A DNA stretch of 32,000 nt from Thermofilum pendens Hrk 5. GTDB lineage: Archaea > Thermoproteota > Thermoprotei > Thermofilales > Thermofilaceae. This document shows, in pieces, positions 1-27,108 of the stretch (positions within the stretch are counted from its first letter, which is position 1; every line of letters starts with the position of its first letter). The stretch is taken from positions 1,620,001 through 1,652,000 of the forward strand of contig NC_008698.1 of NCBI RefSeq assembly GCF_000015225.1. Direction: 5' to 3'. The translations under genes were made by a program, and so were the position numbers. The notes beneath the pieces are model-generated. The model saw only the letters and a list, made by a program, of their open reading frames with translations. It made no database searches and was not told where the DNA came from.

Positions 1-4
1 AAAC

Positions 5-484: not shown

Positions 485-493
485 TTTTCAGAC

Positions 494-715: not shown

Positions 716-716
716 C

Positions 717-2258: not shown

Positions 2259-2294
2259 GTTCGAAGCACCTTTGCCATTTTTTGGGGATTTACC

Positions 2295-2305
2295 ATTATA
2301 TAAAT
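2295..2305 (-). promoter_or_regulatory. TATA-like box for the GH1 gene
   Basis: The minus strand reads ATTTATATAAT, about 42 nt upstream of ATG 2258, in the AT-rich divergent intergenic region. Confidence 0.4.
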
Positions 2306-2341
2306 CTTTACCCTGTTGTAATATTATAACTTCGTAGAAAA

Positions 2342-2352
2342 ACTTATAAGTA
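2342..2352 (+). promoter_or_regulatory. TATA-like box (palindromic CTTATAAG) for the ABC transporter operon
   Basis: ACTTATAAGTA lies about 44 nt upstream of ATG 2391. A GAGG Shine-Dalgarno-like element sits 8 nt before the ATG. Confidence 0.4.
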
Positions 2353-2390
2353 TCCATGTTCACATCAATCTTGCAACAGAGGCTGAAAAT

Positions 2391-4301: not shown

Positions 4302-4312
4302 GCCCATAAATA

Positions 4313-4323
4313 TTTTTCTTTTT
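4313..4323 (+). terminator. Oligo-T tract (T5CT5), possible attenuating terminator after the binding-protein gene
   Basis: TTTTTCTTTTT lies 12 nt after stop 4301. It is followed by GGTGA and ATG 4336. Archaeal terminators are oligo-T tracts. Confidence 0.4.
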
Positions 4324-4335
4324 GGGTGATAGACG

Positions 4336-5379: not shown

Positions 5380-6258
5380 GTGAGCGCTATGTCCACTTGG
5401 TCCAGACTAAAGGCCTCCTTCGTCTGGAGTTTAAAATACCTTTTAAGGAAGCAAAGAGTACGCTTCGCACTCTTCTGGGTACTGTTCACGATCGTGCTTG
5501 CCGCTGTAGGACCTCTTATAACCCCGTACGACCCTACTCAAACGGCGGGACCCCCGCGTCAACCCCCATGCAGTAAGTACTGGCTTGGAACAGACTGGTT
5601 CGGCTTCGACCTATTTACAAGAGTTGTATATGGTCTTAGAGTATCACTCTACGTAGGAGTCATCGCGGCAATTGTCGGAACAACTGTGGGAGTTCTACTC
5701 GGACTAGTCTCGGGGTACTTCGGCGGTCTAGTCGATGAAATCGTATCGTTCGTAGTGAACTTGCTTCTAACCATACCCCCACTACTCATAGTGATACTTG
5801 TACTCACTTACATTGGCTTTAGGGGCCTCGAGTTTAATGGACTGCTGATAGGATTACTTCAGTGGCACTGGGTTGCAAGGGCCGTTCGAAGCATAACAAA
5901 GTCCCTCCGTTCTCGAGACTTCGTTTTAGTGTCCAGGATGAGCGGGCTTTCCGCGTTCGAAACCATACTCAACGATATTCTCCCAAATATGCTTTCATAC
6001 GTAGCCTTAGTGTTTGTCCTGCAATTCTCAAGTGCCGTATTCTTCTCAGTTACACTCGAGTTCTTTGGACTAGTACCCGGCAACATAATGTCCATAGGGT
6101 TCATACTTCAACAAGCAGTGCTCTGGAATGCAATACAGATGAATGTATGGTGGTGGGCAATAATACCTGGAATACTGATAACGCTGTTTCTGGGTAGCCT
6201 CTATGTGATATCGTCTTCTCTCGACGAGCTTTTCAATCCTCGGCTAAGGGGTGAATGA
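5380..6258 (+). CDS. ABC transporter permease (OppC/DppC-like)
   Basis: 292-aa polytopic membrane protein. It starts immediately after the previous stop and ends LDELFNPRLRGE. Confidence 0.9.
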   Translation: MSAMSTWSRLKASFVWSLKYLLRKQRVRFALFWVLFTIVLAAVGPLITPYDPTQTAGPPRQPPCSKYWLGTDWFGFDLFTRVVYGLRVSLYVGVIAAIVGTTVGVLLGLVSGYFGGLVDEIVSFVVNLLLTIPPLLIVILVLTYIGFRGLEFNGLLIGLLQWHWVARAVRSITKSLRSRDFVLVSRMSGLSAFETILNDILPNMLSYVALVFVLQFSSAVFFSVTLEFFGLVPGNIMSIGFILQQAVLWNAIQMNVWWWAIIPGILITLFLGSLYVISSSLDELFNPRLRGE

Positions 6259-7223
6259 ATGTGAACACAATCCTTCAGGTTCGTGACGCCCGGATATACT
6301 ACGCTGTGAAAGGTACAGAGGTAAAAGCCGTAGATGGAGTTTCATTCGAAGTCCACGAAGGAGAAATACTGGGGATAGTAGGCGAAAGTGGCAGTGGAAA
6401 ATCAACATTGCTAAACTCGCTCGTAAATGTGAGGCCGCCCATGAAGTACATCGGCGGAGATGCACTGTTTGATGGGAAAAATCTCTACAGGATGAGCAAG
6501 GAAGAAAAGAAAAGTGTACTCGGCACACGCCTAACGATTATTCCTCAGTATGCACTGGATGCTCTACCACCAGTTTTCAGAATAAAGCAGTATCTTGCAG
6601 ACTTCGCAAAAACGCATGGACTGAGTGAGAGCGAAATAATTAAGCTGGCACGAGAGCGGCTTAAGGAGGTCTCGCTGTCCGAAAAAGTACTTGATATGTA
6701 TCCCATAGAGCTTTCAGGCGGAATGCGTCAACGCGTAGCAATAGTGATAGCCTCCCTAACATCGCCTCGGTTGCTACTGGGAGACGAAATCACCTCCGCA
6801 TTAGATGTGGTCACGCAGAAGGGGATAATGCTCAACATTAGAAGATTTGTCGATGAAGGACTTATAGGATCTGCCGTACTGGTAACACACGATATATCCC
6901 TGATATACCAAGTAGCGGATACAATCATGGTCATGTATGCTGGGAAAGTAGCGGAGATAGCACCAGCAGAGGAAATAGCTAAAAAACCGCTACATCCATA
7001 CACGAACATGCTGATATCATCTTTAACAAAGCTCGGCGTTAAGGCTTCTCAGCAGAGACTTTCGGGAATAAAAGGACTTCCACCGAGCCTAGCAAATCCT
7101 CCGCCGGGTTGCCGGTTCGCGCCCCGATGCCCATACGCGGTTGGCAGGTGTAAAAGCGAGGAGCCCCCAGCAAAAAATGTAGACGGTCATCTTGTAGCCT
7201 GCTGGTTGAGGGGGTGGGATTAG
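6255..7223 (+). CDS. ABC transporter ATPase (OppD/DppD-like)
   Basis: Walker A GESGSGKS, signature LSGGMRQR and a C-terminal Cys motif PPGCRFAPRCPYAVGRC. ATGA overlap with the permease stop. Confidence 0.9.
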   Translation: MNVNTILQVRDARIYYAVKGTEVKAVDGVSFEVHEGEILGIVGESGSGKSTLLNSLVNVRPPMKYIGGDALFDGKNLYRMSKEEKKSVLGTRLTIIPQYALDALPPVFRIKQYLADFAKTHGLSESEIIKLARERLKEVSLSEKVLDMYPIELSGGMRQRVAIVIASLTSPRLLLGDEITSALDVVTQKGIMLNIRRFVDEGLIGSAVLVTHDISLIYQVADTIMVMYAGKVAEIAPAEEIAKKPLHPYTNMLISSLTKLGVKASQQRLSGIKGLPPSLANPPPGCRFAPRCPYAVGRCKSEEPPAKNVDGHLVACWLRGWD

Positions 7224-8197
7224 TGGTTGAACTGTTAAGACTAGAGAACGTGACTAAGGAATACTCCAGAGGACTCTTCGGTGGAACGAGGTTCAGAGCC
7301 GTAGAGGATGTCAGCTTTAAGGTCGATAAAGGAAAGATATTGGCGTTGATAGGCGAGAGCGGAAGTGGCAAGACAACAATAGCCAGGATAATCCTAAGGA
7401 TCCTAAGGCCTACTAGCGGAAGAGTTATTTTCGAGGGGAAGGATATCTTTGCCTTCGATGCCGAGGAATCTGCGGCTTACTACAGAAACGTTCAAGGAAT
7501 ATTTCAGGACCCCTACTCCAGCTTTAACCCCCTGAAAACGGTGGACGATATCCTAGAGCTAACGTGTAAAAAGTATACGTGCTCGGAGTACCCAGAAAAC
7601 GCGATTAAACAAGTACTTGAAAGAGTGGGGCTTGATCCGCAAAGCGTTCTTGGAAAGTTCCCTCACCAGCTCAGTGGCGGACAGTTGCAGAGAGTCTCCA
7701 TAGCGAGAGCTCTATTGGTGAAACCTAGACTACTAGTGGCAGACGAGCCCGTATCAATGCTGGATGCCTCAACGAGGGTGGACATATTAAATATCCTCTA
7801 CGATCTAAAGACCGGTGAAAACATCTCGACGTTGCTCATAACGCATGACGTTTCTCAAGCGTACTACGTCGGAGACGAGATAGTTGTATTGTATAGGGGA
7901 CACGTCATGGAAAGAGGGGACGCCACAATATTGGAAAAACCCCTTCACCCATACACGACGAACCTTCTAGCATCCGTACCAACACTTAGCTCCAGGTGGG
8001 CGACCGAGGAAAAGATTCGGGCAGCGAGGCTAAGGCTCGAAGCAGAAGAAGAAACAGTCTACACCACTACTGGATGCAAGTACGCTTCGAGGTGTCCCTA
8101 CGCTTCAGAGAAGCTCGGATGCTTCACAAGGAAGCCACCAGAAATAGAGGTTGAACCCGGACATTTCGTGAGGTGCTGGCTTTATGAAAGAAGGTAA
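7214..8197 (+). CDS. ABC transporter ATPase (OppF/DppF-like)
   Basis: Walker A GESGSGKT, signature LSGGQLQR, Walker B LLVADEP and a C-terminal GCKYASRCPY motif. Confidence 0.9.
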   Translation: MGLVVELLRLENVTKEYSRGLFGGTRFRAVEDVSFKVDKGKILALIGESGSGKTTIARIILRILRPTSGRVIFEGKDIFAFDAEESAAYYRNVQGIFQDPYSSFNPLKTVDDILELTCKKYTCSEYPENAIKQVLERVGLDPQSVLGKFPHQLSGGQLQRVSIARALLVKPRLLVADEPVSMLDASTRVDILNILYDLKTGENISTLLITHDVSQAYYVGDEIVVLYRGHVMERGDATILEKPLHPYTTNLLASVPTLSSRWATEEKIRAARLRLEAEEETVYTTTGCKYASRCPYASEKLGCFTRKPPEIEVEPGHFVRCWLYERR

Positions 8198-13863: not shown

Positions 13864-13962
13864 AAACATCGTTAGACATAGACAAAACAATGTTATACAA
13901 TCATTCCTGAAAAGAGATTAGGTTGAATAACAACGTTATACATTGATATAACAATGTTATGC
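13864..13962. repeat. Four phased copies of AACAAYGTTATRC-like motif in an AT-rich island
   Basis: aacatcgttagaca (13864-13877, degenerate), aacaatgttataca (13886-13899), aacaacgttataca (13929-13942) and aacaatgttatgc (13950-13962). Start-to-start spacings are 22, 43 and 21 bp. Confidence 0.6.
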
Positions 13963-14066
13963 TTATTCCGCCACAAAAACGTGCACCAACAAACAAGCAC
14001 AGCCCGGTAAAGAGAGCCTTGAAACATGCATCCCCGCCCACGCTCACCCGAGCACCCGGCGTTCGC

Positions 14067-14074
14067 CTTAAATA
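14067..14074 (+). promoter_or_regulatory. TATA-like box CTTAAATA
   Basis: Lies 36 nt upstream of in-frame TTG 14106. The same octamer sits at a similar distance upstream of the vapB-like gene at 19893. Confidence 0.45.
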
Positions 14075-14105
14075 CTCCTGCTTCCAGATTACTTGGGGGC
14101 CTGGG

Positions 14106-15266
14106 TTGGGAGTTAGGGCCGAGTTTCTGAGGCTACTGGAGGAGGACGTGGAGTTTAGGTATGCAGTCGCAGGCTACCTGGGAGTGTTAGAGGTTTTGAG
14201 GAGGCTAGACTCCCTAGCCGAGGAGATGAAGAGGCTCAGAGAAGAAATGCACGCGGGCTTCGCGAAGCACGGGGAAATACTTGAAAGGCTCGAAAAGATC
14301 CTCGAGAAGCACGAAGAGGCCTTGAGAAGACACGATGAGGAGCTAATCAGGCTTAGAGAGGACATGAATAAGGGGTTTGCCAGGCACGACGAGCAACTCG
14401 CAAAGCTTAGGGAAGACATGAACTCCGGCTTCGCGAGGCACGACGAAGCATCGAGAAGGCACGAGGAGCAACTTGTGAAGCTTAGAGAGGACTTCAACAA
14501 GCTGAGGGAGGATATGAACAAGGGCTTCGCTAGACACGACGAGGCTCTTAAAAGGCATGAAGAAGAACTCGTGAAGCTTAGGGAGGACATGAACGCCGGC
14601 TTTGCTAGACAAGACAAAGAGCTCACCAGGCTTAGAGAGGACATGAACGCCGGTTTCGCTAGGCATGACGAGTTATTCAGGAGGCATGAAGAGGAGATGA
14701 AGGGACTACGGGAGGATATGAATAAGGGATTTGCCAGGCACGATGAAGCGTTGAGGAGGCACGAGGAAGAGCTAGTAAAGCTCAGAGAGGACATGAACAA
14801 AGGCTTTGCTAGACACGACGAGGCGCTGAGGAGGCATGAGGAGATTTTAGAGAAGCATAGCGAGGAGTTAGCAAAGTTGAGGAGCGCTATGATTGCCGGT
14901 TTTGGGGAGTTAAGCAAGTTTGCGGGTATGACCTTCGAGGAATTTGTTAGGAAGTTCCTGACCGCTTACCTCAGGGAGGCGGGCGAAGTCCCGGAAGGCT
15001 CAGAGCTGAGGAGGGAGGTCGTAGAAGGCGAGGAGATAGACCTCTTCCTCGAAGAACCACTCATAGTCGGAGAAGTAACGGCACACGCAGAGTCCCTGGA
15101 GGAGCTTGAGAAGCTAGTCAGGAAGGCGGAGCTGGTGAAAGCCAAGTACGGTAAAGAACCCAGGAAAATCCTAGTCATACTTACAGCGCCCAGGGACTTA
15201 GCAGAGAAACTTGAAAAAATTGCCGGCGAGAAGGGCGTAGAGCTCATAATAGGGAGAACAGCCTAG
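14106..15266 (+). CDS. His-rich coiled-coil repeat protein with PD-(D/E)XK-like C-terminal domain (DUF3782-like by memory)
   Basis: The ORF track starts at 13959. The first 49 codons cover the AT-rich repeat island and the TATA box and look non-coding, so TTG 14106 (LGVRAEFLRLLEEDVEFRYAVAGYLG) is preferred. Nine LREDMNxGFARHDE-type units are followed by EIDLFL...LIVGEVT...ILVILTAPRDLAEKLEKIAGEKGVELI. Confidence 0.8.
   Translation: MGVRAEFLRLLEEDVEFRYAVAGYLGVLEVLRRLDSLAEEMKRLREEMHAGFAKHGEILERLEKILEKHEEALRRHDEELIRLREDMNKGFARHDEQLAKLREDMNSGFARHDEASRRHEEQLVKLREDFNKLREDMNKGFARHDEALKRHEEELVKLREDMNAGFARQDKELTRLREDMNAGFARHDELFRRHEEEMKGLREDMNKGFARHDEALRRHEEELVKLREDMNKGFARHDEALRRHEEILEKHSEELAKLRSAMIAGFGELSKFAGMTFEEFVRKFLTAYLREAGEVPEGSELRREVVEGEEIDLFLEEPLIVGEVTAHAESLEELEKLVRKAELVKAKYGKEPRKILVILTAPRDLAEKLEKIAGEKGVELIIGRTA
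14234..14909 (+). repeat. Intragenic tandem repeats (about nine units, 18- or 25-codon period)
   Basis: LRE(D/E)MNxGFARHDE cores are separated by short (QLAK, ELTR) or long (ALRRHEEELVK) spacers. The copies differ mostly at synonymous positions. Confidence 0.9.
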
Positions 15267-16510: not shown

Positions 16511-16927
16511 TTGAGCGGCGAGTACGTAGAGACCCTGAAGCGTAGAGCTGTGAAACTCCTCCAGGTAGCAAGGTCCATCGAAGACGCTGGGCTAGCGCTG
16601 TTCCTCGCTGAGCAAAGCGCCCAGCTGTACATAAAGGCTGTTCACTACGAGCTACTCGGCGAGAAGGTACGAGGGCATGGCTTGAGGGAGCTCCTGGGCC
16701 TTTTCGCGAGGAGCCTAAGAGAGGCGGGCTACGAGAAAGAGGCAGACGCTATCACAGGCTTAGCCCTCGAGCACCGCCGCGCCCTGGCTCTCCTCGAGGA
16801 AGCCTACACGATGGGTAGGTACGGAACGTATGTCTACGGCTCCGAGGACGTCGAGATTGCTGTTAGGACTGTCGAGAAGCTCGTGGAGACACTAGAGAAG
16901 GTGGCTAAGAGTGTCAAGCTGGGTTAA
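16511..16927 (+). CDS. HEPN domain protein (divergent, no Rx4-6H)
   Basis: FLAEQSAQLYIKAVHYELLG, GHGLRELL and EEAYTMGRYGTYVYG. TTG start; followed by an overlapping MNT gene. Confidence 0.75.
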   Translation: MSGEYVETLKRRAVKLLQVARSIEDAGLALFLAEQSAQLYIKAVHYELLGEKVRGHGLRELLGLFARSLREAGYEKEADAITGLALEHRRALALLEEAYTMGRYGTYVYGSEDVEIAVRTVEKLVETLEKVAKSVKLG

Positions 16928-17279
16928 GCGTCACTTCGAGCACTTGAGGAAGTGGCGCGAATACGCCGAAGCCATTGCTAAAGCGGCTATGGACGTGGTG
17001 CCCGGCGCCAGGGTCTACGTTATCGGCGGAGTCGCCGAGGACAGGGTTACCGCGCTGAGCGACATAGACATCCTGGTGGTGGTACCCGGCGGCGCGCGTA
17101 AAGGGCTCTACGCGGACGTCCTTGAAAGAGCAATCGACGCGTACGGGCTACCCTGGGACGCCCCGGTAGAGCTACACATAGTCAGCGAGAACGAAGCCAA
17201 AGAGTACTTGAGACGCGCGAGACGAGCCGTACACGTAACCCCTGGAGGCTTAGAGGTCGACAATCGCTCGAAGGCTTAG
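16911..17279 (+). CDS. Minimal nucleotidyltransferase (MNT)
   Basis: VYVIGGVAEDRVTALSDIDILVVV motif. GTG start overlaps the HEPN gene end by 17 nt. Confidence 0.8.
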   Translation: MSSWVKRHFEHLRKWREYAEAIAKAAMDVVPGARVYVIGGVAEDRVTALSDIDILVVVPGGARKGLYADVLERAIDAYGLPWDAPVELHIVSENEAKEYLRRARRAVHVTPGGLEVDNRSKA

Positions 17280-17430
17280 AGGACTGTTTACCTGTGAAAA
17301 GCCTTCTCTCCGGTTGCCGATCCTCAGCCTTCACGAGCCTCTCCGCGTGCCCCGAGAGTAACCTCCATAAGTCTCTACCTGCGCCCCATAGACGAGTATG
17401 CAGTATGAGGTTCGCGAAAAAGTATAAACA

Positions 17431-17439
17431 TATATAAAA
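17431..17439 (+). promoter_or_regulatory. TATA box TATATAAAA
   Basis: Centred about 34 nt upstream of GTG 17469. It is too close to the ORF-track start at 17448. Confidence 0.5.
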
Positions 17440-17468
17440 GCTTTTAAGTGCAAGAAGGGGACGGGCAG

Positions 17469-17858
17469 GTGAGTGACGAGGCTCTGCGCTGGCTCTCAGA
17501 GGCGGAGTGGGATCTCGAGACCGCCGAGATTCTTCACAAAGCGGGTAGGTACAATGCTGCCGCCTTCTACGCTCACCAGGCGGCTGAAAAGGCTTGTAAA
17601 GCGCTACTTTACAGTATACACGAGGCCCCGTGGGGGCACAGCGTTAGGGTTCTCCTGGAGAGGTACTTTGAGGCCAGGGGGTTGAGAATAGATGAGCTCC
17701 TCAGCTATGCCAGAGAGCTGGACAGGCACTACATACCCGCGCGCTACCCCAATGCCCACCCAGCGGGAACGCCGCACGAAGCTTACGACAGCGAAGCCTC
17801 TTCAAGGGCTATTAGCGCCGCCAAAGCGATAGTCGACTTTGCGAGGCGAAGCCTTTGA
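17469..17858 (+). CDS. HEPN domain protein (PF05168-like)
   Basis: FYAHQAAEKACKALLY, GHSVRVLL and LDRHYIPARYPNAH (Rx4H present). Start GTG 17469 is chosen from the TATA position; the ORF track starts at 17448. Confidence 0.85.
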   Translation: MSDEALRWLSEAEWDLETAEILHKAGRYNAAAFYAHQAAEKACKALLYSIHEAPWGHSVRVLLERYFEARGLRIDELLSYARELDRHYIPARYPNAHPAGTPHEAYDSEASSRAISAAKAIVDFARRSL

Positions 17859-18247
17859 ACACTTTGAGCGACGTCGTTGAGAGACTGAAAAACAGGTTCA
17901 AAGTGTACGCAGTTATACTCTTCGGCTCGAGGGCTCGCGGCGACTGGAAGCCTTGGAGCGACTACGACCTTCTTGTAATAGGCGACTTCGATAAAGACTA
18001 CCTAGATAGGATAGGAGAGGTTCTCGACGCGCTACGGGACGTCAGGCTCCCTGTGGAGCCCCACCCATACACTCTGAGTGAAGCCCTCGAAATGGTCGAG
18101 AAAGGTAACCCGCTAATAATCAGCGCCCTTGAAGAAGGGGTGGTGCTACACAGCACGGGCGAGTTCGAGAAACTGGTAAAAGCCTTCGAAGAGCTGAAGA
18201 AGAAAGGATTGGAGAAGACGAGAACCTCCTACAAGCTACACGCATAG
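17855..18247 (+). CDS. Minimal nucleotidyltransferase (MNT)
   Basis: ILFGSRARGDWKPWSDYDLLVIG motif. TTG start overlaps the HEPN stop as TTGA. Confidence 0.85.
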   Translation: MNTLSDVVERLKNRFKVYAVILFGSRARGDWKPWSDYDLLVIGDFDKDYLDRIGEVLDALRDVRLPVEPHPYTLSEALEMVEKGNPLIISALEEGVVLHSTGEFEKLVKAFEELKKKGLEKTRTSYKLHA

Positions 18248-18360
18248 AGCGCGCGGCGACAACGTAACCCGATAGCTGAAAGCCTACCGCCGGGCTCTTG
18301 TGCGAATCCTTACAAAGCGCTAGACTCTTGAGCCGCCGCGAATCCTCCCAGCTACGGCAC

Positions 18361-18780
18361 CTACAAGTCTCCCGAGAACGCATCGATGCGTTCGCACAAC
18401 CTCCTGCAACCCGCCTCGTAGTACAGCTCGTCCAGCGTCCGGCTCAGCAAGGACTCGTAGAGCCCCGGAACCCTTTCCAGCACCACCACCCCCTTTGTCA
18501 GCACGCTGTACCTAAACCGGGGCGGTATCTCGTCGAGAGGAACCACGTCGACCGGCACGCCGAGCGCGAGCTCCAGCCTCGCCGAGAGCGCCGCCAGGTA
18601 CCCGAGATCCCCGCGCTTAGTATAAACCGCCAAGTCCACGTCGCGGTAGCTGTCGAGGCTGACAAAACTACCGAACACTACGGCCAGCAACACCTCCTCC
18701 TCGGAGCCAAGCACCTCCCTCAGCTTAGCCAAAACCTCCTCCTTACCCCCACTGTAGTACCTGTACTCGTCAAAAGCCAA
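18361..18780 (-). CDS. mntA: MntA-type nucleotidyltransferase (partner of DUF86/HepT)
   Basis: AVVFGSFVSLDSYRDVDLAVYT motif. TTG start overlaps the upstream DUF86 gene end by 11 nt. Confidence 0.85.
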   Translation of the reverse strand: MAFDEYRYYSGGKEEVLAKLREVLGSEEEVLLAVVFGSFVSLDSYRDVDLAVYTKRGDLGYLAALSARLELALGVPVDVVPLDEIPPRFRYSVLTKGVVVLERVPGLYESLLSRTLDELYYEAGCRRLCERIDAFSGDL

Positions 18781-19182
18781 GCTCTCGCTTCACCCTCTCC
18801 AAGAACTCTCTAACCGCTTTAAAATCCTTCCTGACGCTATCGTACACGCGTCTATCGTCTACAACCCAGTACCTGTGGATAAGCAGGTTCCTCAACCTAA
18901 CAAGCTTAACCAGCTCCTCGAACTCCCAAGCATTCATAAGACCCTTCTCAACTAGCACGCTAAACGTCCTCACAGGCGTCTCAGGCCTAACCCCGTAGGC
19001 GTTTCTAGCGATATGGTAGCACAAGGCTATAAGCGCCTCAACCAGCACTGCGAGGTAGTACCTTATCTCGCTCCTCTCAGCGCGCGAAAGACTCTCGAAG
19101 GGCTTAGAGGCTTCTTCGAGGACATCCTCATAGATTCTTCTATGTCCAGCAGGAGCTTCCTTACATACTCCCTGTCGATCAC
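18770..19182 (-). pseudogene. hepT: DUF86/HepT HEPN toxin, apparently frameshifted near codon 16
   Basis: The C-terminal frame (to 18770) carries LRNLLIHRYWVVDDRRVY (Rx4H). That frame stays open and DUF86-like up to a stop at 19202-19204 but has no ATG/GTG/TTG before GTG 19048. A second frame starting at GTG 19182 reads VIDREYVRKLLLDIEE, a typical DUF86 N-terminus. The two join with a 1-nt shift around 19130-19142 (AGAAGAA). Confidence 0.65.
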
Positions 19183-19202
19183 CAGCAACCGCCCCCAGCG
19201 CG

Positions 19203-19646
19203 CTACTCCTTACCGAAGAGCCTTAATCCCTCTTTAACGGCTACCTCCGCCAATCTCTCATCGAACGTCAAGAAAGCTTCAAAATTCTTCGCCGAGGCTA
19301 TTTGAAGAGCATCAGCAATGTAAACCCCGTACCTAAAGACGTACCTCACGGACTCTACAAGTATAGGCTTGCTTATACGCACCACCCTGAGAGACCCCAA
19401 CCTAGCCAGCGTGCTAACCTCGCTCAGGAACTTCGAGAAACAGTCATTCACGTCGGCGATAACGCCCCTCCTCCTATACTTATCGAACACCACAGCTACC
19501 TCACCGATGTTAAAAAGCGAGAAACCTATCGTGACGTCCCCCGCATACGCCCCCGCATAGATCTCGTCGAGCACGTCCGTCCCCTCCTCCACCACGTACC
19601 TCTTGACAATCGCGCTGGTATCAAGGTAAACGCTCCTCACGCCCAT
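19203..19646 (-). CDS. vapC: PIN-domain toxin (VapC-like)
   Basis: VYLDTSAIVKRY N-terminus, then FNIGEV, YIADALQIA and LTFDERL acidic positions. ATG 19646 overlaps the upstream antitoxin gene by 26 nt; the ORF track starts at 19664. Confidence 0.8.
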   Translation of the reverse strand: MGVRSVYLDTSAIVKRYVVEEGTDVLDEIYAGAYAGDVTIGFSLFNIGEVAVVFDKYRRRGVIADVNDCFSKFLSEVSTLARLGSLRVVRISKPILVESVRYVFRYGVYIADALQIASAKNFEAFLTFDERLAEVAVKEGLRLFGKE

Positions 19647-19893
19647 ACCTAACCTCCCTAACAACGTCCTCAGCCCTCAACCCCCTAACCCTCCCACTAA
19701 CAACCTCCTGCGGCGAGAAATACCTACACTCGACGCCGAGATCCCTGCACAAATCCCTCACAAAAGCCTCCACGTCGTACATAGACAGAAGCTCCTCGAC
19801 AAGCTCGCTGAGAGACCTACCCTCAAAGGCAAGCCTACTCTTAACCCTCGAAACAAGATCCCTATCCAGCGAGAGAGTAACCTTCACCTTCAC
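19621..19893 (-). CDS. vapB: Ribbon-helix-helix (CopG-like) antitoxin
   Basis: VKVTLSLDRDLVSRVKSRLAFEGRSLSELVEELL is an RHH pattern. GTG 19893 is preferred because the CTTAAATA box (minus strand, 19927-19934) lies only 9 nt from the ORF-track start at 19917. Confidence 0.7.
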   Translation of the reverse strand: MKVKVTLSLDRDLVSRVKSRLAFEGRSLSELVEELLSMYDVEAFVRDLCRDLGVECRYFSPQEVVSGRVRGLRAEDVVREVRYGREERLP

Positions 19894-20032
19894 GTAAACC
19901 CGCCCGTAAGTATACACGTAAAGAAGTATTTAAGTATAGCTACAGCCGGCCCAGAGAGCTCCCGCTCGGCGAGAAAGCTACACCTATCCACCGTCCGCAA
20001 GCACGGCAACCGGTAGGCGGCCGCTACCAGCC

Positions 20033-20521
20033 CTACTTAGCCTGCTGAACGACTTTCCTCGCGTACTCAAGCAACCACCTAGCTATCGGTAAAGCAGATT
20101 CAACGTCCTCGAGCCTGTACTTTGCCTCGTGAAAGCCCCAAACGTGAACATCGTACGCAGTAGCCCAAGCGAACCTGATTCTATCCTCGCCGAGAATCCT
20201 GGAGAGATCCGTCGAAGCCTGACCCAGCAACCAAGCGTCCCACCTCCCCCTCCTCCTAACCTCTTCAAGCTGCTTAACGTTAAACCTCTCAGCCAACGCC
20301 TTGACGCACTCCTCGACGGCCTTGTAGATCTTCTCAGAAGCCTGAACAACGTTACCCTTAGCCACGTACTCCTCGGCCTCCCTGAGCATCTCCTCGGCGA
20401 AATCGATCCTAGCCCCGGCAACCTCGACAGGGTCTACTAAAGCCCTAGACGGCAGAGCCCCCTCCAAGTCGACGCCCCTCCTCTCGGCCTCCTCAGCGAA
20501 CCCCCTGGAAATAGTTACCAC
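20033..20521 (-). CDS. PaREP1-family protein (HEPN/KNTase_C-like helical bundle by memory)
   Basis: GNVVQASEKIYKAVEECVKALA and AYDVHVWGFHEAKY match the PaREP1 pattern (xQAxEKxxxA...LHxxxYxG). No adjacent MNT of its own. Confidence 0.7.
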   Translation of the reverse strand: MVTISRGFAEEAERRGVDLEGALPSRALVDPVEVAGARIDFAEEMLREAEEYVAKGNVVQASEKIYKAVEECVKALAERFNVKQLEEVRRRGRWDAWLLGQASTDLSRILGEDRIRFAWATAYDVHVWGFHEAKYRLEDVESALPIARWLLEYARKVVQQAK

Positions 20522-20583
20522 TGCGTCTATGACTTTCCTGAAAAGGGAAAAATGCTTTTACGGCATGCAAGGGACTCAGCCCC

Positions 20584-20928
20584 CTAAGAAAGCTCCACCG
20601 CGTACTCCATCGCATCCTGCACCACCACGCTTCTCTTCAGCGCCTCCTCGAACTCCTCCGGAGTATACACTAGAAACTCGAACGCGAGCTCCCTGCTAGC
20701 CAGCCCCCTCACAAACCTATACCTCTCGCCGGGCTCCATACCCTCAAAGCACCTAGAAACCACCACCAGGTCTACATCGCTGTCCTCGACCCACGTCCCC
20801 CTAGCATAGCTACCGAACAAGTAGACCCTGGCATCCCCGCACACCCTCCTAATACTCTCCACAAAATCCCTCAGGGCCCCCGCAACCCTAGGGGGTAGCG
20901 AGAGCCTCTCTAACCCTTTCAACGACAC
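20584..20928 (-). CDS. Minimal nucleotidyltransferase (MNT)
   Basis: VYLFGSYARGTWVEDSDVDLVVVS motif. GTG start overlaps the upstream HEPN gene by 41 nt. Confidence 0.85.
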   Translation of the reverse strand: MSLKGLERLSLPPRVAGALRDFVESIRRVCGDARVYLFGSYARGTWVEDSDVDLVVVSRCFEGMEPGERYRFVRGLASRELAFEFLVYTPEEFEEALKRSVVVQDAMEYAVELS

Positions 20929-21289
20929 CCCTAGCCACCTCTATAGCTCGAACAGCCTGCGCCCTCGAGAAACTCGCAGAAGGCCTCCTAAGGCCCGCGT
21001 TAGGATACCTGGCTGTGACGTAGTACTGGGAAAGCTCCGGGAGAGCCTCCTCGACGTCCCCTGGGAGAGAAAGCGTGCCTTTCAACTCGCTGTAAAGCAT
21101 CACCAGGTCATGGGCCCTAGGAGGCCTCCTCCTCAGAAGCCCTATGTAACAGGCCTTAAAAGCCTTCTCCACAGCCTGCTGAGCCATGAAACAAGCCAAG
21201 CTATAGTCCCCTACACCCTCAGCCCTCACAGCCCTCTCAAGATCTGCAACAGCCTCCTCAAGCCAGTCCACAGCCTCCTCCCTAACCAT
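20888..21289 (-). CDS. HEPN domain protein (no His in Rx4-6H position)
   Basis: FMAQQAVEKAFKACYIG, AHDLVMLY and LSQYYVTARYPNAGLRRP. Confidence 0.85.
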   Translation of the reverse strand: MVREEAVDWLEEAVADLERAVRAEGVGDYSLACFMAQQAVEKAFKACYIGLLRRRPPRAHDLVMLYSELKGTLSLPGDVEEALPELSQYYVTARYPNAGLRRPSASFSRAQAVRAIEVARGVVERVREALATP

Positions 21290-21503: not shown

Positions 21504-21983
21504 CTAGGCGCGCCCTGTAGGCAAGGGGCTTTCGCGCGAAGTATAGATAGTGTGTTCATCGATCACTCTAAGAGAGTGAGGTTGTCTCCTCGCAGAGGTA
21601 GCTCTAGCCTTTTTGAACTCTTCAAGCATCTTTTTAACCTGTTTAATTGCGTACTCGGCCTCTTTGGGGTTATAGACTCCCTCGTAAAAGGCTTCATCGT
21701 GTAGCGTTTTCATGATATCGCTGTAGAGAGCTCTAAGGTCTTCCCTGTTCATCTTTCTAAGTAGAGATCTCCGTTCGCTGTGTGATTTCGGCGTCACGTT
21801 CATCTTTCGGTATATGTAGGAGTTTACGGCAAGTACCATAGAGAAGAAGGCTTTATCCGCAGCGTTTCTGTAAAGCATTACATCCCTTGTTTTGATCGCC
21901 TTCTCAAACTCTTCTTCAGCATATTTCAGAATCTCTTCAGCGGTTACCAAGGTAACATCCTCTTCGGCCACCACCCCTCCCAC
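21504..21983 (-). CDS. PaREP1-like protein
   Basis: YRNAADKAFFSMVLAVNSYI, SHSERRSLL and LHDEAFYEGVYN. GTG start. Visibly AT-richer than its neighbours. The last approx. 30 codons are unconserved-looking tail. Confidence 0.55.
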   Translation of the reverse strand: MGGVVAEEDVTLVTAEEILKYAEEEFEKAIKTRDVMLYRNAADKAFFSMVLAVNSYIYRKMNVTPKSHSERRSLLRKMNREDLRALYSDIMKTLHDEAFYEGVYNPKEAEYAIKQVKKMLEEFKKARATSARRQPHSLRVIDEHTIYTSRESPLPTGRA

Positions 21984-22077: not shown

Positions 22078-22569
22078 TTACCGGTTCTTAAGTTCTCTTA
22101 GCCTTTGAGCTACCGTCTTTACGAGCCCCTCTACATGCTTAATAGCTGTCTCTACGTGGCTCTCCTTGCACCATCCCTCGTAGAAGCATGTATGCATGCC
22201 GTTAGCAGCCATCCAGGCGTCGTAGACCCATTCGCCGAGCTCGCTCTCGATCAGGCTTTCGTAGTCCCACAGCTCCCCGTGGCTTGTTAATCTTCTGCCA
22301 TCTTTCCACATAGCGTAAGCTTTCACAGCTAGCGCGGCTGCGCCCCAGGTTTTCTCGGCAGCCTGTCTAACATCCCCCCTCTTCAGCTCTTCTCTAGCCC
22401 GATCGAGCAGGTACAAGGCAACCTCCACATATTCTCTAGCCCTGTCGCTTGGGTCGAAGTCACGCGTGAGAAAGTCTACTATGTACTCCTCGATAGTTAC
22501 ACCACGCTTTCTGGCTTCCTCCAAGATCTTTTTAGCGAGACTTGGAGGTAGGGCGATGGGTACAGCCAT
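22078..22569 (-). CDS. PaREP1-family protein
   Basis: GDVRQAAEKTWGAAALAVKAYA, SHGELW and NGMHTCFYEGW. Confidence 0.7.
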   Translation of the reverse strand: MAVPIALPPSLAKKILEEARKRGVTIEEYIVDFLTRDFDPSDRAREYVEVALYLLDRAREELKRGDVRQAAEKTWGAAALAVKAYAMWKDGRRLTSHGELWDYESLIESELGEWVYDAWMAANGMHTCFYEGWCKESHVETAIKHVEGLVKTVAQRLRELKNR

Positions 22570-22738: not shown

Positions 22739-23210
22739 TTGAACTGCCGAGGGTGCGGCGCCGCGAGTTTCACGTACGTCGACGTGCTGGTGCGTGGGGC
22801 CAAGGGCTCCAAGGCTGTTAAAATGCTCGTCGACACGGGCTCCACCTACGTGGTGCTAGACCCGACGACCGTTAGGGGAGCTGGGCCTCTACGAGACCCC
22901 GTACACCGTCGAGCTCACCCTGGCGGATAAGAGGAGGATCGGAGCCAGGCTGTACTTGGCCGAGGTTGAAGTCAAAGGCAGGAAGTGGCCCGTGCTCGTA
23001 GCCGAAGTCGACGCCCCCGTCCCCTTGCTGGGCGTTTACGCGCTGGAGACCCTGGGCCTGAGGGTGAATCCGACAACGGGCGAGCTGGAAGAGGTGTCAC
23101 CGGAGGGAGGATACCTGCTGGTTGCAGGGCTCATGCTTTCCTGCTTAAAGCTCACTTTCTCCCATCTTCGAAGGATAAAAGCGAAAACAGCCTCGTACAG
23201 CCAGGAATAG
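22739..23210 (+). pseudogene. Retropepsin-like (clan AA) aspartic protease, frameshifted at a G4 run
   Basis: Frame 1 gives KMLVDTGSTYVVLDPTTVR and then runs out of alignment. From 22878 a second frame gives ELGLYETPYTVELTLADKRRIGARLYLAEVEVKGRKWPVLVAEVDAPVPLLGVYALETLGLRVNPTTGELEEV, colinear with the intact paralogue at 26582-26935. The frames switch at GGGG 22875-22878. Confidence 0.65.
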
Positions 23211-23312: not shown

Positions 23313-23711
23313 TTAATCAGCGTTGGGGGGGGCGGCTGAGGACTCGCTGAACCCATGCTCTCTCAGCACCCGCTCCAGCTGTTGCTGGCAGTTAGCCGCA
23401 CGGTATACCACGCCCCTCTTCCTCGTCTGGGACATTAGCTCTCGGTAGACCATGCTGTCCACCCCCCTCTTGGAGTGAAGCACAGCTACGATCCTGAACG
23501 GGTTGCAGAGCCCCGGCACAGCGGCGGCGAGCGGCCCGCGTAGCAACGCTTCGACCGTGCTCTCCAGCTTCCTCACGTCGTCGATCTTCGCCCTCTCCGT
23601 TTCCTCCACCACTGCCACGGCGCCCTCGCCTACGAGGAGGTAGTCTGCCCGCTTACCCCTCCAGTTCACCGCGCGTGCCAGCTCCTCCAGGTCTATCTTC
23701 ACGGCGACCAC
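23313..23711 (-). CDS. Small alpha/beta protein, PD-(D/E)XK-like topology, unknown function; ATPase partner
   Basis: 132 aa. GTG 23711 lies 1 nt after the ATPase stop (TAG C GTG). ADYLLVGEGAVAVVEET ... FRIVAVLHSKRGVDSMVYRELMSQTRKRGVVY aligns by eye with the C-terminal modules of the proteins at 14106-15266 and 25719-26534. Confidence 0.7.
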   Translation of the reverse strand: MVAVKIDLEELARAVNWRGKRADYLLVGEGAVAVVEETERAKIDDVRKLESTVEALLRGPLAAAVPGLCNPFRIVAVLHSKRGVDSMVYRELMSQTRKRGVVYRAANCQQQLERVLREHGFSESSAAPPNAD

Positions 23712-23712
23712 G

Positions 23713-25086
23713 CTAAGCCAGGATCCTCGCCCTCTCCTCCGCCAGCTCCTCGGCGACCCTCACGAACTCCTCCTCAGGCACACCCTCCGGCCCCACATCC
23801 AACCTCTCGACAACAGCCCTCCTCCCCTCAGCCCTGAGCAAGTAGGCCGCCACGAGCCCTGGATCCAAAACCTCGGCCGCGCTGTACCCCAGCCTCTCCG
23901 CCACACCCGGCGACGAGGACAACGCCACCATGTTGCTAACCGCGTAGAGCAGGTAATCGCTGTGCGTCGAGAGGACCACCACCTTCCCGTGCTTCTTGAC
24001 AGCCCTAGCGATAAGCCTCGCTAAAGCCTTCTGCGCCCGAGGATGCAGGTGGGCCTCGGGCTCCTCGATAAACACTAGCCATGGTTGCTCTGGAACCACG
24101 AGGGCCAGCGCTACAGCTAGCGACTCGCGCACACCCGAGGGGGCGCGGGGCAGGGGAAGCCTCTGGCCACTCCACGTGTTGACGTATACTGCGCGCACCC
24201 CGCCCTCCGGGATTGCCTCCACGCTACAACCGAGCTCTCTCAGAAAGTCCTCCAAGTCTCCCGTGTCGACCTTCCCCTCGGCCAGGCTCTCGGCCAGCAT
24301 GAAGTAGGCGTCCCTGAAGTGCTCGTCGGGGTACAACACGTCCTTAAGCAAGCTAGGCCTAGCGTAGGGCTTAAGGAGGATCCTTGAAAGCCCAGCCCTG
24401 CTGTCAGGCAGAAGCACGGAAACGCCGGGAGCCTCGAAGAAGATGTCGAGAGCCTTGTACAAATAAATCGCTAACACCTTGAGCACCGCGTCAACCAAGT
24501 CGGACGGACTCAAAACCGCTTCGTCGTACAGACTGACGCCGGAGAGCCTATGAATAATCCTAAGCCTCCCAGGCGCCGGCACAGTGACCTCTAGCTCGTC
24601 CAGGAAGCCCTCGTAGGGTTTGTGCCGGCTCACTGCGAGGCGCCCACCCTCAATCACGAACTCGATGGAGGAAAACGAGCCCGCAACACCCACAACCGCC
24701 CGCCCCGAGCCGCTCCGCACGAGCTCCTGCAGACCAGCGCCGAACACTTCCTCGAGCGTCCTGCCGAGGCCCGTAGCGAGGGCCCCGGGAAGCGCCTCCA
24801 GGTATAGCTTGAGGAGCCTCTTGAAGCTATCCCGGGACGCAGACCCTTTCTCGACACCCTCCAAAACCTCGCCTACGAGCTCCCCTGCCCCGAGCTCTGA
24901 GACAGCCTCGCCGAGCAACTTTAAGTCGGGCATCGCTACTGTCAGCGCCCACACTAGCTGCAATAGCATCGACTTACCCACACTGTTCCTGCCCACGAGA
25001 ACCGTCAGCGGCCTAACCTCTATACTCGCCTCCTCGAAAGGACCGAAGTCCCTCACGTATACACGCGCATTAACAGGCATTCCCAT
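23713..25086 (-). CDS. ABC/SMC-like ATPase (AAA_15/AAA_21 type)
   Basis: N-terminus VYVRDFGPFEEASIEVRPLTVLVGRNSVGKS (Walker A). LLPDSRAG, signature-like PSGVRESLAVALAL, Walker B plus D-loop WLVFIEEPEAHLHP, and STHSDYLL. Start ATG 25086 or 25080; the ORF track uses TTG 25089. Confidence 0.85.
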   Translation of the reverse strand: MGMPVNARVYVRDFGPFEEASIEVRPLTVLVGRNSVGKSMLLQLVWALTVAMPDLKLLGEAVSELGAGELVGEVLEGVEKGSASRDSFKRLLKLYLEALPGALATGLGRTLEEVFGAGLQELVRSGSGRAVVGVAGSFSSIEFVIEGGRLAVSRHKPYEGFLDELEVTVPAPGRLRIIHRLSGVSLYDEAVLSPSDLVDAVLKVLAIYLYKALDIFFEAPGVSVLLPDSRAGLSRILLKPYARPSLLKDVLYPDEHFRDAYFMLAESLAEGKVDTGDLEDFLRELGCSVEAIPEGGVRAVYVNTWSGQRLPLPRAPSGVRESLAVALALVVPEQPWLVFIEEPEAHLHPRAQKALARLIARAVKKHGKVVVLSTHSDYLLYAVSNMVALSSSPGVAERLGYSAAEVLDPGLVAAYLLRAEGRRAVVERLDVGPEGVPEEEFVRVAEELAEERARILA

Positions 25087-25107
25087 CAACGCATCCAGCG
25101 CAACACT

Positions 25108-25117
25108 CTATTAAACC
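25108..25117 (-). promoter_or_regulatory. TATA-like box GGTTTAATAG for the ATPase operon
   Basis: Centred 27-33 nt upstream of the candidate ATG starts, implying a leaderless or near-leaderless transcript. Confidence 0.45.
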
Positions 25118-25242: not shown

Positions 25243-25608
25243 ATGCGTGCACACAAACCTCCCGGCAGAGAACCGGTACTACTGGAAGCCCCGGGCTTGC
25301 AGAACGCCCCCGTACTGGAGGCCAGGCTCCTGCACGACGAGAGCATCGGGACCTACCTACAGGTCACACTGAGCTGCGGAGCCAGGGAGGCCCTAGAGCT
25401 GTGGGAAAGAGCGGCGGGCGCCGCGAGGCTCCTCGGCGTGCCAGTGCTAATCTACTGGACAGGACCCACCGACCCGCCGCCCTCCGAGCTGGGAGCCAGA
25501 CTGGGCAGGATACTAGCCAAGATGGGCGTATTCCTGGCGACTAAGGAACCCATAGACACCCTCCAAGCCCTCAAAGAAGAGCGGGCGACAAGCCCTCCCC
25601 CGAAGTGA
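25243..25608 (+). CDS. Hypothetical protein
   Basis: 121-aa ORF divergent from the ATPase operon. Codon pattern looks coding, but there is no recognisable motif or clear promoter, and the start is uncertain. Confidence 0.35.
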   Translation: MRAHKPPGREPVLLEAPGLQNAPVLEARLLHDESIGTYLQVTLSCGAREALELWERAAGAARLLGVPVLIYWTGPTDPPPSELGARLGRILAKMGVFLATKEPIDTLQALKEERATSPPPK

Positions 25609-25718: not shown

Positions 25719-26534
25719 ATGGCCATTCCATCCATTGACTGGTCCAGGCTCGAAGAGGTAGTCGAAAGAGCCGTGAGGAGAGCTAGGGCCGATGAGCTGA
25801 GAGACCTAGCCGAGGCCGTCAAAGTGCTCGCCGAGTACATGAAGACAGGCTTCGAAAGCACGCTCAGAGCCATAGAGGACCACTCCAAGATGATAGAGGA
25901 GCTAACCAAGGAGGTCAGAAATAACTCCAGAATCCTCGAAGAACACTCGAAAGTCCTTGGAGAGCATTCTAGGAGAATAGAAGAACTGGCCGGAGAGATC
26001 AGAAATCACTCCAGAGTCCTCGAAGAGCACTCCAAGAGATTAGAGGAGCTAACCAGGGAGGTCAGAAATCACTCTAGAATCCTTGAAGAACACTCCGAGA
26101 GGCTGAAAGAGCTGACCAAGAGCGTGGGAGAGCTGAAGGCCGCCGTAGGGTCCATCGGCAGGAGGTGGGGCAGGGACCTCGAGAAGCTCGTCTACGAGCT
26201 GTACAAAGACGCGCTGCTAGGACTCGGCGTGAAGGACGTCGGCAAGATAGAAAAGTACACGTACGTCGACATAGACGGGAAGTACTACAGGAGAGGCGCC
26301 AGGATAGAGCTAGACATATACATGCACGACACCAGCGTCTACTTCATCGAGGTGAAAAGCCTCCTGGAAGTAGACGACGTGTACTGGTTCAACGAGAAGT
26401 GCGGCATCGTATCCAAGATCATAGGCAGAACGCCGACCAGGAGAATCATCGTAGCAGTGAACGCCGCGAAGGAAGCCATCGAAGCAGCACGAGAACTCGG
26501 CATCGACGTAGTCTACGGCTCGATAGTAGACTGA
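25719..26534 (+). CDS. His-rich coiled-coil repeat protein with canonical PD-(D/E)XK C-terminal domain (DUF3782-like by memory)
   Basis: Eleven-residue-type repeats (EEHSKxLEELTxEVRNHSRILE, several copies), then ELDIYM...VYFIEVKS (D...ExK) and RRIIVAVNAAKEAIEAARELGIDVVYG. Confidence 0.8.
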   Translation: MAIPSIDWSRLEEVVERAVRRARADELRDLAEAVKVLAEYMKTGFESTLRAIEDHSKMIEELTKEVRNNSRILEEHSKVLGEHSRRIEELAGEIRNHSRVLEEHSKRLEELTREVRNHSRILEEHSERLKELTKSVGELKAAVGSIGRRWGRDLEKLVYELYKDALLGLGVKDVGKIEKYTYVDIDGKYYRRGARIELDIYMHDTSVYFIEVKSLLEVDDVYWFNEKCGIVSKIIGRTPTRRIIVAVNAAKEAIEAARELGIDVVYGSIVD

Positions 26535-26581: not shown

Positions 26582-26935
26582 TCAGAGCGCCGGCACCGCC
26601 TCAACCCTTCTAAACTGTTTCGTCGTAGGGTCAACCTCTAGTGCCAAGTTCTCGAGAGCCGTGACACCCAGAACCTCCGCGTCACCCTCCCTAGCGAAAA
26701 CAACAATACACGTCGCCCTCTCACCCATGCACCCAATAACGGCCTCACCGATCTCGCGCTCAACAACCCTACCCCCAATCGTCCCGAACACCCTCCTACC
26801 CGTAGGCTCAATGCCCAGCCCCCTTAACCTGCCACCCTCAATCCACGTATACATAGAGCCCGTATCGACCAAAAGCTCGAAGCCAGCACACCTAGACCTA
26901 TCGCGAAGATTGCACACCTCGACCCTAGCAACCAC
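26582..26935 (-). CDS. Retropepsin-like (clan AA) aspartic protease, intact
   Basis: ELLVDTGS catalytic motif and C-terminal LGVTALENLALEVDPTTKQF. GTG 26935 is preferred because a CTTATAG box lies 27 nt upstream; the ORF track extends to 27025. Confidence 0.75.
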   Translation of the reverse strand: MVARVEVCNLRDRSRCAGFELLVDTGSMYTWIEGGRLRGLGIEPTGRRVFGTIGGRVVEREIGEAVIGCMGERATCIVVFAREGDAEVLGVTALENLALEVDPTTKQFRRVEAVPAL

Positions 26936-27108
26936 GCAACTACTCAAGGCACCCCCACTATAAGCTAGCTCGTAGCTTTTTACAATCAACGCGGGCGCCG
27001 CGACCAAGCACCCTCGGTCGAGCACGCGAAGACATGCCCACCGCGGATCAAGCGGCTACGCGCGCGTAACTTTTCATAGTTCTACAATTACGCTTGCATC
27101 CACCGCTC

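Follow-up and report, generated by a model that had tools for sequence, protein, structure and literature searches.

PD-T4-4 and WonAB are the described systems that come closest to the locus considered here. PD-T4-4 emerged from a functional selection in Escherichia coli, was validated as anti-phage and is annotated as "ATPase, nuclease" (Vassallo 2022, PMC9519451), its effector being classed as PD-(D/E)xK and its partner as a P-loop/ATP-binding cassette (ABC) ATPase that forms higher-order complexes (bioRxiv 10.1101/2025.07.10.664194; 10.1101/2024.01.29.577857). WonAB, found in the WASA-1 prophage of Vibrio cholerae, joins an OLD-type ABC ATPase to a variant PD-(D/E)xK nuclease and is said to be related to PD-T4-4 and to a class of "OLD-ABC ATPase + novel REase" (restriction endonuclease) operons (PMC12137116), a class which that paper attributes to a 2020 ABC-ATPase survey by Krishnan et al. 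Defence by WonAB needs both genes and is abolished by ATPase-site mutants and by WonB K71A; WonB, which is lost when the WonA ATPase is inactive, is predicted to dock onto the C-terminal extensions of a WonA dimer, and protection takes the form of lysis-independent abortive infection without bulk DNA degradation (PMC12137116). WonAB homologues are reported mainly in Gram-negative bacteria, and archaeal members are not discussed in the portion of the text of PMC12137116 available to us. Here we describe two adjacent genes from Thermofilum pendens Hrk 5, contained in a stretch of 32,000 nucleotides (nt) of contig NC_008698.1 (positions 1,620,001 to 1,652,000; the whole stretch is referred to as the window), which are likely to represent a PD-T4-4/WonAB-type two-gene operon in which an ABC ATPase sensor/regulator is coupled to a small REase-fold effector of a compact Thermoprotei subfamily. 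Judged by sequence, the pair appears to be a divergent, miniaturised archaeal branch of this known bacterial ATPase-plus-nuclease anti-virus family, and by analogy its role is probably in antiviral defence or abortive infection.

The larger of the two proteins belongs to the OLD/SMC-type ABC ATPases, and its ATP-site motifs are intact. It matches Pfam AAA_15 (E 7.8e-21) and AAA_21 (E 6.3e-20), and its top PADLOC model is PD-T4-4_A (E 6.4e-25), ahead of generic "AriA", GajA, HEC-01A and others; no defence model scores better than PD-T4-4_A on the Staphylothermus and Pyrobaculum ATPases either, or on any related bacterial ATPase tested. Of over 500 homologues found, the nearest 120 are full length and 38-57% identical, their named sources being Thermoprotei (Staphylothermus, Pyrobaculum, Acidilobaceae, and Desulfurococcales). 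For comparison with PD-T4-4 we used plasmid-borne pairs from Escherichia, Klebsiella, Serratia, Bernardetia, and Annamia, including two plasmid pairs verified as bona fide PD-T4-4 by PADLOC (A 2e-258, B 5e-107, both full length). Profile alignment of the archaeal ATPase family with verified PD-T4-4_A by hhalign gave a probability of 99.9% (E 4.7e-31) over 413 columns, with positions 11-461 on 2-467, so that the alignment runs end to end, C-terminal extension included, and BLASTP alone places residues 341-451 of the T. pendens ATPase on residues 342-450 of PD-T4-4_A. By these comparisons the archaeal ATPase is homologous to PD-T4-4_A, and the link is direct and strong. Identity between the ATPases is only ~16-31%, and the T. 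pendens host is a hyperthermophilic archaeon.

The GRNSVGKS, FIEEPEAHLHP, and STHS motifs named in a preliminary description of this DNA were all read directly from the translated ATPase, and their conservation was scored over 21 homologues (Table 1). PSGVRE is named as the signature motif because it is placed ahead of Walker B. FIEEPEAHLHP aligns with IDEPELNLHP of PD-T4-4_A, and STHS sits 33 residues past the Walker B Glu, a spacing equal to that between the mutated WonA residues E300 and H333. The ATPase ends after a C-terminal extension of ~70 amino acids (aa), without a Toprim domain; this extension carries the conserved residues P410, Y416, L430, G436, F442, E452, and R453, aligns with the C-terminus of PD-T4-4_A and, by analogy with the WonA/WonB models (PMC12137116), is probably a docking platform for the small protein. 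The confident AlphaFold2 (AF2) model of the ATPase (pLDDT, the predicted score in a local distance difference test, 90.7) finds structural matches in Rad50, SMC, and RecN heads and in PtuA, and the nearest solved proteins by sequence are an OLD-family nuclease and GajA.

The two genes form a real operon. Both open reading frames (ORFs) lie on the minus strand where the preliminary description had placed them, and the junction, read from the sequence as TAG-C-GTG with the ATPase stop codon at 23713-23715, leaves a gap of 1 nt; the genes are translationally coupled. Counted from the TTG at 25089 the ATPase has 458 aa; if it begins at the ATG at 25086, as does the 100% identical database ATPase of 457 aa, it has 457 aa. 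The small ORF encodes 132 aa from its first GTG, while a 129-aa database protein (99% identical) begins three codons later at a second GTG (23702). The TATA-like box noted earlier was located as TTTAATAG; its spacing of 26 nt fits a leaderless archaeal transcript, and from this consensus match it is probably the promoter of a leaderless bicistronic message for both proteins. Homologues at ~50% identity retain the gene order and the tight spacing in unrelated genomic contexts, and the pairing accordingly exceeds chance.

The ATPase and small-protein genes are strictly conserved neighbours and are co-inherited. The two closest homologues of the small protein each lie directly downstream of an ATPase of the T. 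pendens type, in differing genomic contexts. Four ATPase homologues picked across the family (Staphylothermus hellenicus, Pyrobaculum, and two metagenome contigs) are each followed by an ORF of 119-127 aa whose match to the small-protein profile scores 1e-37 to 1e-41. When 13 closer small-protein sequences were used to scan metagenomes, 14 loci came back; in 13 of these the ATPase ends within a few bases upstream, and the remaining locus has its gene right at the end of the contig, giving adjacency in 13/13 informative metagenome loci. The same arrangement, the gaps ranging from -29 to +17 nt, is seen at the Staphylothermus, Pyrobaculum, and Desulfurococcaceae loci and at another five. At every fetched locus not cut by a contig end, the small gene lies directly downstream of the ATPase.

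Sequence models are silent on the small protein, which has no match in Pfam, NCBIfam or PADLOC; when 66 family members were compared with these three collections we obtained scattered chance matches only and no PADLOC model was matched, and a Protein Data Bank (PDB) sequence search with the family profile returned only a non-significant TPR-CHAT match (E 0.025). An exhaustive profile search brings together 80 cluster representatives, nearly all of 100-165 aa, in a compact family that is Thermoprotei-wide. The AF2 model of the small protein is confident (pLDDT 85.6, predicted template modelling score 0.82); it begins one hairpin strand with D23 and places E36-T38 on the next strand. The top Foldseek matches are REase-fold proteins, namely BspD6I, the Can2 nuclease domain, FokI, Bse634I, Mus81/XPF, and phage endonucleases such as endonuclease I, and further ones include FANCM, Mrr-type enzymes, and Hjc-type domains, with probabilities of up to 0.96-1.0. 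A list made up almost only of REase-fold proteins supports the nuclease-like fold suggested in the preliminary description; according to the model, the small protein has the restriction-endonuclease (PD-(D/E)xK) fold with its D and E at the canonical hairpin positions. The D-hhhh / hhhhEET pattern that had been picked out by eye is real, with D23 and E36 invariant in the alignment of 66 family members on which our conservation counts for this family are based; the family motifs are K-H-A-D and V-E-E-T. Also borne out is the Thr in place of the canonical Lys: position 38 is Thr in 53/66 members and otherwise Ala, Val or Ser, with Lys in 0/66. D45 is nearly invariant in the same alignment. An alignment by eye had been proposed to C-terminal modules in the proteins encoded at 25719-26534 and 13959-15266, but it did not hold up (hhalign probability ~1% each). 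The former protein has a marginal PDDEXK_10 match (E 5e-4, just below the Pfam cut-off), and any resemblance to the small protein is then at the level of the general fold and not specific homology.

The connection between the small protein and PD-T4-4_B was found through a family of longer partners. When the ATPase alignment was used to scan reference genomes, the generic EEPEAHLH pattern swamped the search and most of what came back were distant relatives from bacteria and archaea, which in this way exposed the intermediates. At 61 of these loci the ATPase has a tightly coupled downstream ORF of 115-312 aa (most 130-230 aa); these partners have no consistent Pfam match, several match PADLOC PD-T4-4_B and PDC-M47B weakly, and a jackhmmer search from one bacterial partner collects 53 of the 61, T. 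pendens type included. All carry the database name "hypothetical protein" and no Escherichia or Vibrio member was found among them. An alignment of 40 longer partners shows a C-D motif (Asp 39/40), an E-L-K motif (Glu 40/40, Lys 33/40, Thr 3/40), a conserved Q/K-L helix and four conserved Cys, of which two are N-terminal, one immediately precedes the catalytic Asp and the last is C-terminal (33/40); these suggest a structural metal site. Archaea, too, have longer partners of the canonical type (Thermofilales, Nitrosopumilales, Methanomicrobiales, and Asgard metagenome-assembled genomes), making the archaeal presence of the wider family unsurprising in itself. Using hhalign, the compact archaeal family aligns with the intermediates at 92.9% (E 3.7e-7, 116 columns), in a register that sets H-A-D on C-D, V-E-E-T on (I/V)-E-L-K and C108 on the C-terminal Cys, and the intermediates align with verified PD-T4-4_B at 96.8% (E 2.1e-10). 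The link from the small protein to PD-T4-4_B is thus transitive, by way of the intermediate partners, and is significant at both steps.

In gene organization T. pendens resembles PD-T4-4 of E. coli ECOR58, with two co-oriented and tightly coupled genes, the ATPase first and the small PD-(D/E)xK-fold protein second; the A-B gap of the verified PD-T4-4 plasmid copies is 1-13 nt, and the Asp, the acidic residue and the following helix of B share the same register. The two differ in that the T. pendens B protein has 129-132 aa as against 184-210 aa in PD-T4-4_B, lacks the N-terminal ~50-80 residues that make up the N-terminal domain, reads D…E-E-T where PD-T4-4_B has D…(D/E)-x-K and does not vary in its Lys, and carries His79 and Cys108 as invariant residues. 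The likeness to WonAB (ABC ATPase with OLD-type motifs plus variant REase-fold effector) was compared by description only; the essential K71 of WonB is replaced by Thr at the equivalent T. pendens position.

Table 1. Positions, within the window, of the ATPase/small-protein pair, its conserved elements and the neighbouring toxin-antitoxin genes
Feature	Position	Strand	Basis or conservation
ABC-type ATPase ORF, PD-T4-4_A type (Pfam AAA_15/AAA_21)	23713-25089	minus	ORF and profile matches
Compact restriction-endonuclease-fold protein ORF, putative effector	23313-23711	minus	ORF
TATA-like box TTTAATAG	25115-25108	minus	26 nt upstream of ATPase ATG; consensus match only
ATPase Walker A GRNSVGKS, residues 33-40 (K39)	24970-24993	minus	G33, N35, G38, K39, S40 invariant, 21 homologues
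ATPase ABC signature-like motif PSGVRE, residues 317-322	24124-24141	minus	P317, S318, G319, R321, E322 invariant
ATPase Walker B and D-loop FIEEPEAHLHP, residues 340-350	24040-24072	minus	E342 to H349 invariant
ATPase H-loop STHS, residues 374-377 (H376)	23959-23970	minus	T375, H376, S377, D378 invariant
ATPase conserved C-terminal extension, ~residues 390-458, beta-hairpin and long helix	23716-23922	minus	Secondary structure, conservation
Small protein D23, start of beta-2, "PD" position, family motif K-H-A-D	23643-23645	minus	66/66
Small protein E36-E37-T38 on beta-3, at (D/E)-x-K position	23598-23606	minus	E36 66/66, E37 58/66, T38 53/66
Small protein H79, end of beta-4	23475-23477	minus	Invariant, 66/66
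Small protein C108, after beta-5	23388-23390	minus	Invariant, 66/66; equivalent to C-terminal Cys of longer partners
HEPN-MNT pairs	16511-17279, 17448-18247, 20584-21289
PIN protein	19203-19664
PaREP1 genes	20033-20521, 21504-21983, 22078-22569

Several points weigh against assigning the locus to the PD-T4-4/WonAB family. When the compact archaeal family is compared with the PD-T4-4_B alignment directly, hhalign gives 4.8%, which is not significant, and the PADLOC PD-T4-4_B model matches 0/66 of the compact members. The Foldseek E-values of the small protein against solved structures are weak (~0.03), and at two homologous loci the neighbours are ordinary metabolic genes. Finally, Thr stands at position 38 where PD-T4-4_B has an invariant Lys (K110), and the consistent lack of Lys at (D/E)xK, together with the loss of defence in WonB K71A, makes the catalytic competence of the small protein the main uncertainty. 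We nonetheless predict, by analogy with WonAB and PD-T4-4, that it may act as a nuclease despite the Lys-to-Thr change.

The last of these points leads to an alternative that we consider unlikely but worth taking seriously, in which the small protein has kept the REase fold but not its catalysis and serves as an adaptor or regulator, such as a nucleic-acid-binding sensor or specificity subunit, and the toxic or protective activity resides in the ATPase or in an unlinked protein. It would account for the replacement of the (D/E)xK Lys by Thr, Ala, Val or Ser in every compact family member and for the missing N-terminal Cys-rich part of the longer relatives, and it finds some backing in WonAB, where the equivalent Lys is essential and infected cells show no simple DNA degradation (PMC12137116). 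However, the complete conservation of D23, E36, H79, and C108, with D45 nearly so, suggests that a metal or active site has been maintained, and E-x-T is also present in 3/40 of the longer partners of related ATPases. There are active REases that lack this Lys, BamHI having Glu and BglII Gln at that position, and K42 (K/R in 53/66) and K20, both near in sequence, could supply the charge. A "lysine migration" to K48 was considered and not adopted, this position being Lys in 41/66 and Gln in 21/66 of the archaeal members and Gln in the bacterial E-L-T variants.

The genomic surroundings bear on a second alternative. The pair lies in a variable, toxin/defence-rich island: around it the window contains three HEPN-MNT pairs, two PIN proteins, one MazE-type antitoxin, and three PaREP1 genes, the HEPN/MNT and PIN island of the preliminary description being real, and the stretch 16511-21289 is a dense toxin-antitoxin island (Table 1). 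Flanks vary by locus among the homologues but often include HEPN/MNT pairs, PaREP1, PIN, ATPase_2, DUF3782-PDDEXK_10, and further ABC-ATPase pairs. Related ATPase and small-partner pairs fill ~40-50% of ColE1/Rop-type plasmids of 4.2-4.8 kb from E. coli and Klebsiella (L105, L107, and L109), the remainder being mostly replication functions; the L105 pair is verified bona fide PD-T4-4, while those of L107 and L109 are assigned by similarity to verified pairs. That a pair takes up so much of such tiny plasmids fits either a defence-cargo or an addiction role. One could accordingly imagine a primarily selfish addiction or toxin-antitoxin-like module that stabilises the island, with a nuclease-fold toxin, an ATPase controller and no specific antiviral role, as the embedding among HEPN-MNT, PIN-MazE, and PaREP1 genes, the share of about half of 4.2-4.8 kb ColE1-type plasmids taken up by bona fide PD-T4-4 pairs, and the loss of WonB on ATPase inactivation (PMC12137116) might all indicate. 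We regard this as improbable in view of the measurable phage protection conferred by PD-T4-4 and WonAB (PMC9519451, PMC12137116) and of the lack of any sequence sign of toxicity in either protein; moreover, defence and addiction can coexist.

A housekeeping role in DNA repair or recombination, with a mini Rad50/SbcC-like ATPase and a structure-specific nuclease, is very improbable. The structural matches of the ATPase to Rad50, RecN, and SMC heads, and the resemblance of the nuclease fold to Mus81/XPF, Hjc, and FANCM-type domains, would be expected of such a module, but there is neither a long coiled coil nor an Mre11-like partner, in sequence the nearest relatives are ATPases of defence systems (PD-T4-4_A, OLD, and GajA), the neighbours change between genomes with the pair sitting in variable islands, and the family is also found on bacterial plasmids. 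A genuinely new two-gene defence system unrelated to named ones, as might be argued from a small protein that Pfam, NCBIfam, and PADLOC models do not recognise and from the non-significant direct comparison with PD-T4-4_B, appears largely refuted on sequence grounds, the ATPase being homologous to PD-T4-4_A end to end and the small protein reaching PD-T4-4_B through intermediates at two significant steps, with the same motif register and gene order.

Other named systems resemble the pair to a lesser extent. PARIS (AriAB), Septu (PtuAB), Gabija (GajAB), and OLD likewise pair or fuse an OLD/SMC-like ABC ATPase sensor with a nuclease, and AAA_15/AAA_21 motifs are common to their ATPases; their ATPase models score well under PD-T4-4_A for the T. 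pendens protein, and the "AriA" matches derive from PADLOC models that are as long as the generic AAA_15 and AAA_21 profiles of Pfam. PARIS was rejected given that its partner should be a DUF4435/Toprim AriB, whereas the small protein has no Pfam or PADLOC match and an REase rather than a Toprim fold. For Septu an HNH PtuB would be expected, and the small protein shows no HNH match and an REase-like fold. Gabija and OLD call for a fused Toprim, with a UvrD-like helicase in addition in Gabija, but the T. pendens ATPase is without a Toprim domain, GajA models match its core only, and a Pfam scan of the neighbouring ORFs gave no helicase match. HEC-02 also combines an ABC ATPase with a PD-(D/E)xK-superfamily partner, both genes being required for defence (bioRxiv 10.1101/2024.01.29.577857), but its partner is NERD-type; one intermediate partner matches HEC-02B marginally (E 0.003), while HEC-02 models do not match the T. 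pendens B protein and none is found for the ATPase among the 25 best-scoring models listed. The intermediate partners match PDC-M47B and PDC-M29B, from untested PADLOC candidates, weakly, and the ATPases match PDC-M47A second or third, after PD-T4-4_A, but the T. pendens B protein matches neither model; our literature search found nothing on PDC-M47 or PDC-M29.

Several features of the surrounding DNA were observed in passing. A protein with DUF3782 and the marginal PDDEXK_10 match (25719-26534) lies on the opposite strand, ~630 bp from the ATPase start, and has a repetitive coiled-coil N-terminus with repeats like RNHSRILEEHS; the same two domains occur in a protein at 3273-3923 of L087, an unrelated metagenome contig, immediately upstream of an ATPase homologue, and this neighbourhood may be coincidence or a loose association. 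ORFs with retropepsin-like D-T-G-S motifs flank the pair at 22739-23210 and 26582-27025 (LVDTGSTYVVL and LLVDTGSMYTWI). A frameshift may have divided the first, which appears as two ORFs (22739-22930 and 22956-23210), and the 147-aa ORF has no Pfam match. An ORF of 121 aa (25243-25608), divergent from the ATPase promoter region, was likewise without a match in the Pfam scan. Positions 1-8000 of the window have a G+C content of 42-49%, compared with 51-65% in the remainder, and this block may have been horizontally acquired; five co-directional ORFs at 2391-8197 (636, 347, 292, 322, and 327 aa) have a layout resembling a transporter operon. No tRNA gene was found in the window, and the idea of a tRNA-marked integrated element was dropped. 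Another AAA_15/AAA_21 ATPase, different from the first and paired with a small partner of its own, is located within 1-1.3 kb downstream at three related archaeal loci (L088, 6241-7898; L089, 5838-7495; L087, 6643-8309). The partner matches DUF3226 weakly in L088 and L089, whereas that of L087 matches nothing in Pfam; ABC-ATPase modules seem to cluster. In a Pyrodictiaceae metagenome-assembled genome (L006, 3995-5355), the ATPase homologue is divided between two overlapping ORFs of 322 and 154 aa, which reflects either a frameshift/pseudogene or an assembly error.

If the locus is of the PD-T4-4/WonAB type, its mode of action can be sketched by analogy. The ATPase would serve as an OLD/SMC-like sensor and regulator of the putative effector, dimerising head to head about two ATP molecules, and the C-terminal extensions of the dimer would provide a platform that holds, and perhaps stabilises, the small nuclease. 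A cue derived from the virus, for example replication or some nucleic-acid structure, might then alter the ATPase cycle, and a metal-dependent site formed by D23, E36, and possibly H79 would be released or activated. The activated nuclease would cut nucleic acid and put a stop to the making of virus, with the infected cell probably being sacrificed.

The preliminary description had the architecture right, an ABC-type ATPase with a nuclease-fold partner, as Pfam, fold matches, conserved adjacency, and the island setting agree, but its main proposal of an uncharacterised or new system has given way, the profile searches largely assigning the pair to PD-T4-4, directly for A and via intermediates for B. 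Its weaker alternative, that of a variant, fits better with a truncated effector that has Thr for Lys and escapes the Pfam, PADLOC, and NCBIfam models. The pair opens no new category of system. What is new here is an effector of ~120-130 aa without the N-terminal Cys-rich region, its D…E-E-T motif with invariant His and Cys, and the fact that it is missed by the Pfam, NCBIfam, and PADLOC models; within the parts of the surveyed literature available to us, we found no discussion of archaeal members of the PD-T4-4/WonAB family. With the small protein unrecognised by PADLOC models, the pair would probably go uncalled, and the two alignments assembled here (66 compact B proteins and 40 intermediate partners) could be used to build detection models.

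We tentatively suggest, as a possibility only, that the compact Thermoprotei B protein (~120 aa, D…E-E-T, His79, Cys108) is a minimal REase-fold enzyme with a re-wired active site, in which His or a relocated Lys replaces the canonical Lys, and that together with its ATPase it is antiviral in hyperthermophilic archaea. Few archaeal defence systems have been tested beyond CRISPR, restriction-modification, and toxin-antitoxin pairs, and if true this would be the first time that a functional antiviral system of the ABC-ATPase/nuclease kind had been shown in hyperthermophilic archaea, one whose substrate or activation mode might differ from those of bacterial PD-T4-4 and WonAB. An effector of ~120 aa with Thr for the catalytic Lys would offer a compact, thermostable test case for the rewiring of REase active sites and, along with its ATPase, for the control of a nuclease by an ABC ATPase. 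Overall, it is likely that the bacterial PD-T4-4/WonAB family of ATPase-nuclease systems reaches into the hyperthermophilic Thermoprotei in miniaturised form.

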